DNA from: a virus
Direction: 5' to 3' (one strand)
Virus record (IMG/VR): IMGVR_UViG_3300036770_004732
Span: 1-64,000 of that record
Length of the DNA: 64,000 nucleotides
Shown: positions 44,716 through 45,857 of the stretch, piece by piece
How positions within the stretch are numbered: position 1 is the first letter of the stretch
Layout: the number at the start of each line of letters is the position of its first letter
The notes under the pieces: model-generated
What the model saw: only the letters and a program-made list of their open reading frames with translations
Database searches by the model: none
Told to the model about the DNA's origin: nothing
Program-made: the position numbers and the translations under genes

Positions 44716-44738
44716 AGTGTTAAATTATCTCACTATGT

Positions 44739-44767
44739 ATTATGACATACTTCAAGAATATTGTCAA
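44739..44767 (-). promoter_or_regulatory. Sigma70-like promoter of gp59, TTGACA-17-CATAAT
   Basis: Near-consensus hexamers. Confidence 0.75.
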
Positions 44768-44831
44768 TAGGCGACAAAGGATACATTACATTTTCTTTTT
44801 CCACTTATCTTTATTTTTCTGAATACATTTC

Positions 44832-44923
44832 TGCTTTGACTGTCGTTATAAGTATTTATACAAGAAAAGGGTCATAAAGACCCCATTCTGCTTGAATAAC
44901 GACAGACAAGCATCATTATTTAG
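44832..44923 (-). ncRNA. Putative small structured RNA / regulatory cassette (late promoter - hairpin - terminator - late promoter - complementary leader)
   Basis: CTAAATA 44917-44923, TGCTTG/CAAGCA hairpin, GGGTC/GACCC+TTTT terminator, TATAAATA 44853-44860, 10-nt perfect complement CTGTCGTTAT/ATAACGACAG. Confidence 0.5.
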
Positions 44924-44929
44924 TTATAA

Positions 44930-45190
44930 TCATAAAGGCAATTTTGCTCTAGATGTTTTTTTCATAAAATTGAGACGTGTTGCGTCCCACTTTAACCTTT
45001 CTTTCAAAGGCTTTGAAATGAGTTTCGTTACCGATTCTACCTCAAGTCCATTGATTTCACAATAGTGGCAAATTGCATCAATGTAATTAATATTTTCAGT
45101 TGCCACAATATGTTCAATTTCTAAAGCAAATTTAGAAGGTGTTAAAAATTTATTTTCTATTGCTTGTTCTAATTCTTTATTCTTTTCCAT
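44930..45190 (-). CDS. gp33: Late-promoter transcription co-activator gp33
   Basis: FALEIE...YIDAICHYCE...KLISKPLKERLK...LNFMK. Confidence 0.9.
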   Translation of the reverse strand: MEKNKELEQAIENKFLTPSKFALEIEHIVATENINYIDAICHYCEINGLEVESVTKLISKPLKERLKWDATRLNFMKKTSRAKLPL

Positions 45191-45857
45191 ATTGTTCCAG
45201 TTTATCTCTAACAAACTTTCTAATGTATTCGGTGAGTAGTTTGATGTACTTTGATTTGTCTCTTTCTTCATAGATAACGCATTCTCCATTCTCGCAAGCC
45301 ATAATAATTACAAGTTTTTTAACGGGTATGTCAGTTAGTTCATAGAACATACATGCATAAGCAGCACACTGAACAAAATAATGTTCAATCCACTCCCGTG
45401 GTTTTGGTTTTTTAGACGTTTTAAAGTCAATTATTGCTAATTCACCATCAAACTCTGCGATACAATCAACGGTTCCTGCTACTCCAAGAACTTTGCTGTA
45501 TAAGGAACTTTCAAGAGCATAAACATTATTTATACGATTTAAATCTGGTTTGGCAATTTTAAATAAAAATTGTGACAAAGGTTGAACCTCTGGAAGATCT
45601 TCATTTTTTAAAAGATGTTCAACCAAAGTGTGCATATCAGTTCCTCGACTAGTTGCCTGTCGAGTAATCTTATCTGCTTTTTCTTCACCAACCTTTTTAC
45701 GCCAGTTTGCAAAAAACTGACGATTTTTATGACTTGTAACAGAAGTAATAGAAACTAAACGGAGAAGTTCTTCTTCATCTGGAACTTTATAATATCGAAC
45801 ACCATCTATAGTCTCCCTTTCAAGTTTAGGGAGATTCACTTCAATATGATTGAACAT
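45177..45857 (-). CDS. PD-(D/E)XK exonuclease
   Basis: SITSV, RGTDMH, AGTVDC, IIDFKTS, QCAAY. Confidence 0.88.
   Translation of the reverse strand: MFNHIEVNLPKLERETIDGVRYYKVPDEEELLRLVSITSVTSHKNRQFFANWRKKVGEEKADKITRQATSRGTDMHTLVEHLLKNEDLPEVQPLSQFLFKIAKPDLNRINNVYALESSLYSKVLGVAGTVDCIAEFDGELAIIDFKTSKKPKPREWIEHYFVQCAAYACMFYELTDIPVKKLVIIMACENGECVIYEERDKSKYIKLLTEYIRKFVRDKLEQYGKE

Follow-up and report, generated by a model that had tools for sequence, protein, structure and literature searches.

The gp33 and gp59 genes of the phage analyzed here, which encode a late transcription co-activator and a helicase loader, are separated by a short segment that contains late-promoter-like motifs, a terminator-like hairpin and an open reading frame of only five codons. 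This raises the question of where the segment came from, which gene it once served and what its regulatory elements may still do between two core genes of a T4-like cyanomyovirus. The DNA examined, referred to as the window, comprises positions 1 to 64,000 of the IMG/VR record IMGVR_UViG_3300036770_004732, i.e. a stretch of 64,000 nucleotides, and all of the features discussed lie on its minus strand (Table 1).

The closest annotated relative of this phage is Synechococcus phage S-SKS1, in which gp33 and gp59 overlap as ATGA, with zero spacer. The absence of any spacer from this junction in S-SKS1 identifies the segment in the window as a 214-bp insertion (44929-44716), located exactly at the gp33/gp59 junction. 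The genes on both flanks of the insertion are intact: gp33 shows 83% identity to its S-SKS1 counterpart (the homologous part being the final 86 codons), and gp59 shows 67% identity across all 198 residues. Orthologues of the two genes in contig L074 match PHROG 254 ("late promoter transcriptional regulator") and PHROG 269, respectively. In the window, and also in contig L026, gp59 begins with a TTG codon (44715), where the ancestral ATGA overlap, as found in S-SKS1, has ATG.

A search of annotated phages with the insert (megablast and blastn) gave a sole meaningful match, with S-SRM01, a cultured carrier of the cassette. This phage, grown on Synechococcus KCZYC6, shows up to six tblastn matches to the nuclease family described below and has at least two confirmed cassettes. 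Staphylococcus and other blast matches to the insert were dismissed as low-complexity noise.

Table 1. Features of the gp33/gp59 region of the window
Feature	Position	Strand	Basis or remark
gp33 gene (late transcription co-activator)	44930..45289	-	stop TGA 44932-44930
Whole inserted element, 214 bp	44716..44929	-	absent from S-SKS1
Upstream late-promoter-like motif CTAAATA	44917..44923	-	TAAATA 44922-44917; 4 nt ahead of the local hairpin
Local hairpin TGCTTG / 12-nt loop / CAAGCA	44889..44912	-	short-RNA fold and stem versions in the family
5' arm of the long-range stem	44896..44912	-	MFE fold of read-through RNA, 16-bp stem; covariation
Intrinsic-terminator-like hairpin GGGGTC-TTTAT-GACCC(T) and T-run	44861..44884	-	terminator scan; covariation
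Consensus T4-type late promoter TATAAATA, between both arms	44853..44860	-	read directly from the sequence
Leader of the former HEG mRNA, 24 nt	44829..44852	-	3' arm 44849-44832, ending 3 nt before ATG
Five-codon residual ORF MYSEK	44811..44828	-	original HEG part only ATGTATT (44828-44822)
3' remnant of the HEG ORF, other frame (…QKNKDKWKKKM)	44786..44821	-	stop TAA 44788-44786; 96% DNA identity
Sigma-70-like promoter TTGACA-17-(TG)CATAAT, extended -10, facing gp59	44739..44767	-	promoter scan, top match, 11/12
gp59 gene (helicase loader), full length, 198 aa	44119..44715	-	homology to S-SKS1 gp59

The lost gene and its deletion

Judging from its sequence, the insert is what remains of a free-standing GIY-YIG homing endonuclease gene (HEG) cassette. 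The gene order of the window (ThyX, PhoH, exonuclease, gp33, ..., gp59) recurs in two viral contigs, L026 and L035, which carry a 203-aa ORF between gp33 and gp59. A two-piece alignment of the window with these contigs revealed 85% identity up to the sequence ATGTATT and 96% identity from the last 37 nt of the ORF onward. ATGTATT and the last 37 nt of the HEG ORF have been kept and approx. 569 bp have been lost; the two remaining pieces now join between 44822 and 44821. The start codon (ATG at 44828-44826) now opens the short frame ATG TAT TCA GAA AAA TAA, which terminates at 44811.

A preliminary description of this locus, made from the sequence of the window, had proposed that a control module has outlived its cargo, and that the cargo was plausibly a homing endonuclease once inserted between gp33 and gp59. 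Both proposals are borne out, the former by the internal deletion of approx. 569 bp relative to L026 and L035, and the latter by the intact GIY-YIG gene found at this site in the same two contigs. It had also pointed to a possible C-terminal scrap, IQKNKDKWKKKM, encoded in another frame. The HEG product of L026 ends with ...YYQKNKDKWKKKM, and this out-of-frame peptide is therefore the true C-terminus of the lost nuclease.

The word GTATTA adjoins both breakpoints in the intact gene, which would fit a deletion between short repeats, although the join is shifted by 2 nt when compared with L026. The junction sequence was searched for exactly in viral and metagenome collections, and no second contig was retrieved, i.e. 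the deletion is known from a single contig. The copy in the window is the only one without its ORF among approx. 50 distinct copies of the module (described below). The gp33/gp59 site is polymorphic, being empty in S-SKS1, occupied in L026, L035 and others, and decayed by deletion in the window; these three states represent the life cycle of a selfish element at one locus.

The assignment of the lost gene to the GIY-YIG family is based on NCBIfam and PHROG matches, conserved residues and VIA-align Z scores. PHROG homing-endonuclease families were matched by 27 of the 35 relatives of the lost nuclease and TIGR01453 ("group I intron endonuclease") by 14 of the 35; some members of the family carry NUMOD3, NUMOD1 or the I-TevI DNA-binding domain. 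In the alignment of intact orthologues, which omits two rows from an annotated-record locus, residues Y5, Y16, G18, E61 and N79 are invariant and R24 is nearly so. When the predicted structure of the L026 protein (pLDDT 80) was compared with known structures, the top nine rows were all GIY-YIG domains and the next, unrelated row had a Z score of 3.7. Residues 1-84 of the model were aligned with the I-TevI catalytic domain (1mk0) over 78 residues (Z 7.2, rmsd 2.8 Å), and the GIY-YIG domains of UvrC and PD-T4-3 gave Z scores of 6.4-7.2. No match to the Pfam GIY-YIG model was obtained among the nuclease relatives, the Foldseek E-values for the L026 model were not significant, and the PDB sequence-profile match of the nuclease was weak (E 0.24). 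That the cargo was toxic, as the preliminary description assumed, is a supposition only.

The control module and its family

Every element that the preliminary description had listed is present base for base on the minus strand. The local hairpin is composed of TGCTTG (44912-44907), the loop TCTGTCGTTATT (44906-44895) and CAAGCA (44894-44889). Its loop word CTGTCGTTAT (44905-44896) is the exact complement of the leader word ATAACGACAG (44849-44840), and the pairing extends into TGCTT/AAGCA, with AAGCA located at 44836-44832; a repeat search detected the arms as a 14-nt inverted repeat with 93% complementarity. The T-run of the terminator, which intervenes between the module's leader and the upstream gp33 gene on the same strand, continues into the downstream late promoter.

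The MFE fold of the read-through RNA of the window (-33 kcal/mol) contains a 16-bp long stem around the terminator. This helix extends over the initiation region, covering positions -22 to -4 and ending 3 nt before the AUG, and at the sequence level the late promoter is situated between its two strands. An RNA started after TATAAATA has an open, unstructured 5' end (-0.8 kcal/mol). The leader is without a Shine-Dalgarno sequence, so that any "RBS sequestration" would hide the -22 to -4 region instead.

When the 214-nt insert was shuffled with its dinucleotide composition kept, 50 of 2000 shuffles (2.5%) contained a perfect 10-nt inverted repeat within 120 nt; the inverted repeat of the window's copy alone is only modestly significant, and as such suggestive, not decisive. 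The arm complementarity gains its weight from the family, in which the same architecture, with different yet matching arms, is found in dozens of contigs. A search of Rfam returned nothing near the gathering threshold (best scores of 13.6-19.6 bits versus thresholds of 40-101, with E values of at least 1).

The pattern used to find this family was built from two conserved blocks of the module, and the upstream TAAATA was not part of it. The pattern search identified 87 viral contigs, with approx. 50 distinct copies showing the complete architecture. An ORF, of up to 334 aa where complete, is located behind each of the other usable copies (49/49), and it has a GIY-type N-terminus in all usable copies except L092. 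Similar cassettes, whose absence would have counted against the preliminary description, do occur elsewhere, nearly all of them ahead of GIY-type ORFs.

In order to avoid the circularity of a pattern search, loci were also gathered through the nuclease protein, using a tighter subfamily of its sequences. At least 589 stretches of viral contigs were found to encode members of the nuclease family, and the counts that follow were restricted to 46 distinct loci with enough upstream DNA. TAAATA is present 8-45 nt before the ATG in 45 of these loci (in the form of the full TATAAATA in 36 of the 45), and a second TAAATA lies 53-71 nt further upstream in 34 of the 46. In 33 of those 34 loci, strong pairing between the 5' segment and the leader was calculated (-21.5 kcal/mol versus -8.5 kcal/mol for shuffled leaders). 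A covariance model derived from the pattern-found set placed the module directly before the nuclease start in most of 80 protein-anchored loci.

When the copies were anchored on invariant bases, 19 distinct arm pairs were distinguished, nearly all of them fully complementary, and the duplex energy of an arm with its own leader was -21.0 kcal/mol, versus -12.7 kcal/mol with foreign leaders. In a MAFFT alignment, the subtypes were out of register with one another at the terminator and the distal arm, and the pair counts were made with the covariance-model alignment and with anchor-based analyses. In the model-based alignment, which was fitted to the structure of the model and thus leans towards it, 93.4% of the cells were standard pairs, versus 60% in shuffled alignments (0 of 500 shuffles reached the observed value) and only 31-51% when the partners were slid; the independent anchor-register and duplex analyses agree with this result. 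Changes on both sides were observed at 21 of the 22 pairs, with up to six pair types per position. The covariation between loop and leader, which the preliminary description had named as a test of its proposal, is thus strong. Within the terminator, all five pairs (5/5) change on both sides and 97.5% of the cells are paired.

The local hairpin exists in 38 distinct complementary stem versions across the family, and it starts mostly 4-6 nt after TAAATA; its energy is only modestly below that of shuffled sequences (-7.1 versus -4.4 kcal/mol). The 38 versions reveal that one 5' strand has been kept complementary to two alternative partners.

The insertion sites of the cassette are varied. Besides the gp33/gp59 junction, it was found after gp32, before Hsp20, before a tail-fibre gene, beside helicase and polymerase-exonuclease fragments, and within a CobS-like gene, which is thereby split. 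In the last case (L073:3379-5860; IMGVR_UViG_3300032236_001180), the cassette and a 334-aa HEG lie inside the CobS-like gene, whose upstream ORF corresponds to positions 4-177 and downstream ORF to positions 177-364 of PHROG 249. This is a "fractured gene" of the type described by Dassa et al. The control leader of cyanophage HEGs represents a portable, strongly covarying RNA module present at hundreds of loci.

Several copies deviate from the common pattern. Two model matches each were obtained for L190, L138 and L126, and some contigs contain two cassettes 1.3-2.1 kb apart, which suggests that homing endonucleases were inserted in tandem, with a separate arm sequence for each. In L092 (2503-3144), a cassette with the local hairpin TGCTTA/TAAGCA precedes a 173-aa ORF without a GIY N-terminus and without a Pfam match, which may represent a different cargo behind the same leader.

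A second module architecture was observed with the same nuclease family (in L137, L155, L167, L175, L184 and L187, and also in L149 and L166). Here, a long terminator-like hairpin is located approx. 110 nt upstream of the HEG start and carries the complement of the leader in its apical loop (e.g. TGTGTCTTGGCG versus CGCCAAGACACA), followed by TATAAATA and the leader. The upstream TAAATA is missing in most copies of this type.

Proposed function of the leader and its relation to known systems

It is well established for T4 e, I-TevI and Aeh1 mobE that a late promoter may be nested within a hairpin which hides the translation start, and the same mask has been predicted for segB and others; the examples comprise T4 e, soc, 49, I-TevI, I-TevII, I-TevIII and segB, and mobE of Aeromonas phage Aeh1 (PMC2988022, PMC3014915). 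Transcripts arriving from upstream contain both strands of the helix and are silent, whereas the late mRNA lacks the 5' strand and is translated (PMC2988022, PMC3014915). Such hairpins, formed by two complementary conserved motifs with TATAAATA inside, were also reported by Dassa et al. (2009) from phage loci in marine metagenomes, where they precede free-standing endonucleases of the GIY-YIG and Vsr types; one of these loci, gp41-7, kept the hairpin and lost the endonuclease (PMC2677866). As regards the core logic, the preliminary description was therefore mistaken in suggesting that the arrangement was undescribed: this logic is that of the classical T4/Aeh1 control and is also found in the marine loci (PMC2988022, PMC3014915, PMC2677866).

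With the anatomy, homology, deletion, covariation and fold energies given above, we consider it quite probable that a free-standing GIY-YIG HEG cassette invaded the gp33/gp59 junction, that approx. 569 bp of its coding region were later lost, and that the surviving leader is a translational mask of the T4/Aeh1 type. From the T4 and Aeh1 precedents we infer the following use of promoters, termination and masking. In transcripts entering from upstream, a helix of 16-17 bp would form between a segment that precedes the terminator and the part of the leader immediately ahead of the AUG. The intrinsic terminator, by virtue of its position within the loop of this long-range helix, would halt most of the read-through, and the read-through that escapes it would be translationally masked. 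An RNA initiated at the late promoter TATAAATA, which is also placed in the loop of the helix, would lack the 5' arm, and its open leader would be translated late in infection.

The module shares with the T-even masks a 5' strand upstream of TATAAATA, a 3' strand over the start region, and its use on HEGs. It differs from them in that the loop contains an intrinsic terminator, the 5' strand is itself part of a small hairpin that covaries and follows a second late-promoter-like motif, the masked region is without a Shine-Dalgarno sequence, and the whole forms a portable unit of approx. 105 nt common to hundreds of cyanophage loci; in the window, moreover, the regulated gene has been deleted. 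The hairpins of Dassa et al. resemble the module in environment, phage type, complementary motifs, the nested TATAAATA and the occurrence of one orphan, and in L073, too, a host gene is split. Going by the published description, no terminator, upstream motif or local hairpin is mentioned for them, and their loci are fractured genes, whereas the site in the window is the intergenic gp33/gp59 junction. What is new in the window is the orphaned state together with the mapped deletion.

A cis-acting mask alone does not need an invariant upstream [A/C]TAAATA, a covarying local hairpin presenting the arm, or a terminator between the arms. The preliminary description had interpreted these elements as a second late promoter giving rise to an RNA of approx. 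50 nt (local hairpin and terminator) that pairs in trans with the leader; on top of the cis mask, such an RNA would damp the translation of the late nuclease mRNA. Motif, hairpin and terminator together constitute every sequence mark of a separate, putative RNA of this size, which would have its own terminator and complementarity to a target. The upstream TAAATA is invariant in the 49 of 49 pattern-found copies, even though it was not searched for. CTAAATA, moreover, is a credible late-promoter variant in this phage, as had been proposed: in its 111-kb contig (G000), 24 of the 29 TAAATA sites that lie 8-40 nt ahead of the first ATG in a long ORF follow N[A/C] (examples on the minus strand are 65019, 60468, 56612, 46931 and 38797), versus 27 of 111 elsewhere, and the late-promoter consensus of the phage seems to be N[A/C]TAAATA, not strictly TATAAATA. 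The upstream motif, which fits this spectrum and is conserved across the family, is a candidate promoter; the distance from it to the hairpin in most copies is about that expected of a T4-type late start, and cofolding of the short RNA with the late leader gains a net -10.9 kcal/mol. The second module architecture likewise holds the complement in an apical loop. The upstream motif is, however, rarely the full TATAAATA that predominates downstream, and it is missing from 12 of the 46 protein-anchored loci; the hairpin is only modestly more stable than shuffled sequences, and Uzan and Miller record no functionally characterised trans-acting small RNA in T4 (PMC3014915).

The phage itself offers no other target for such an RNA. 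Its 111-kb contig contains a single module, and neither a second cassette, nor a HEG of the same family, nor further arm words were found in it, so that any RNA produced from the orphan module would target only its own stub. We know of no trans-acting phage RNA of such kind for T4-type phages. In cyanophage S-PM2, the antisense RNA CfrI links psbA to the F-CphI nuclease gene. The trans reading of the module would resemble CfrI and antisense RNAs of the type I toxin-antitoxin style in relying on a short structured RNA with a loop complementary to a target leader, and would differ from them in the position of the putative RNA gene, which lies upstream of the target on the same strand instead of opposite it. 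On balance, it appears unlikely that the [A/C]TAAATA motif, hairpin and terminator form an independent late gene acting in trans on the nuclease leader. If they did, hundreds of cyanophage HEG cassettes would contain an antisense regulator encoded upstream on the same strand, and the window would hold an orphan small-RNA gene without a target, left behind after deletion of that target. Silencing, by the orphan RNA, of the nuclease of a co-infecting relative was considered and set aside; the remnant already disrupts the likely target site.

The relic may owe its survival to the operon in which it resides. In the window, the module no longer controls a nuclease, and what remains is a predicted terminator downstream of gp33, a late promoter and, ahead of gp59, a sigma-70-like promoter. 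This last promoter, an 11/12 match, sits in the inserted 3' flank, in DNA missing from S-SKS1, and its TTGACA is also present in L026 and L035; its position recalls that of T4 promoters located within or downstream of seg and mob genes, which, by serving essential downstream genes, favour retention of these elements (PMC2988022). If the host operon came to depend on the module, the terminator would end gp33 transcripts, and the late and sigma-70-like promoters would drive gp59, the next ORF and gp32. The insertion did destroy the ATGA coupling of gp33 and gp59, with gp59 now starting at TTG. Against such a role, the window holds the one orphan found among approx. 50 distinct copies and its junction recurs in no second contig, so that nothing indicates that the module has been retained for long; the perfect match that still exists between the arms is explained equally well by a recent loss of the nuclease. 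Retention of the module as an insulator is thus somewhat doubtful, though conceivable.

Composite units of a terminator-like stem-loop and a promoter that occur at many different genomic sites are also known as PeSLs, in which an early promoter accompanies the stem-loop and which mediate modular shuffling in T4-type phages (PMC2839356, PMC4122927). It is highly improbable that the module is a mobile cassette of this type and not a nuclease leader. The movement of a terminator-like stem-loop together with a promoter between genomic sites is common to both, but PeSLs contain early promoters, are present in many copies per genome, and are without a leader-complementary arm or nuclease cargo. The nested promoter of the module is of the late type, and the unit always accompanies a GIY-YIG gene, bears an arm complementary to the leader and is not repeated in the 111-kb contig. 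PeSL identity, which calls for an early sigma-70 promoter and many copies, was rejected for this late-type, single-copy unit.

Since the basic logic of the translational mask is textbook T4 biology, the main value of these results lies in annotation. Leaders of this kind mark present or former HEGs and account for otherwise puzzling intergenic inserts, terminators and promoters within core replication operons. The labels "translation initiation factor 2" and "UvrC", given to members of the nuclease family in the cyanophage GenBank records MN695334/5 (B3, B23), PV340852 (Sf-CH5) and OR473000 (S-CREM2), are probably misannotations.
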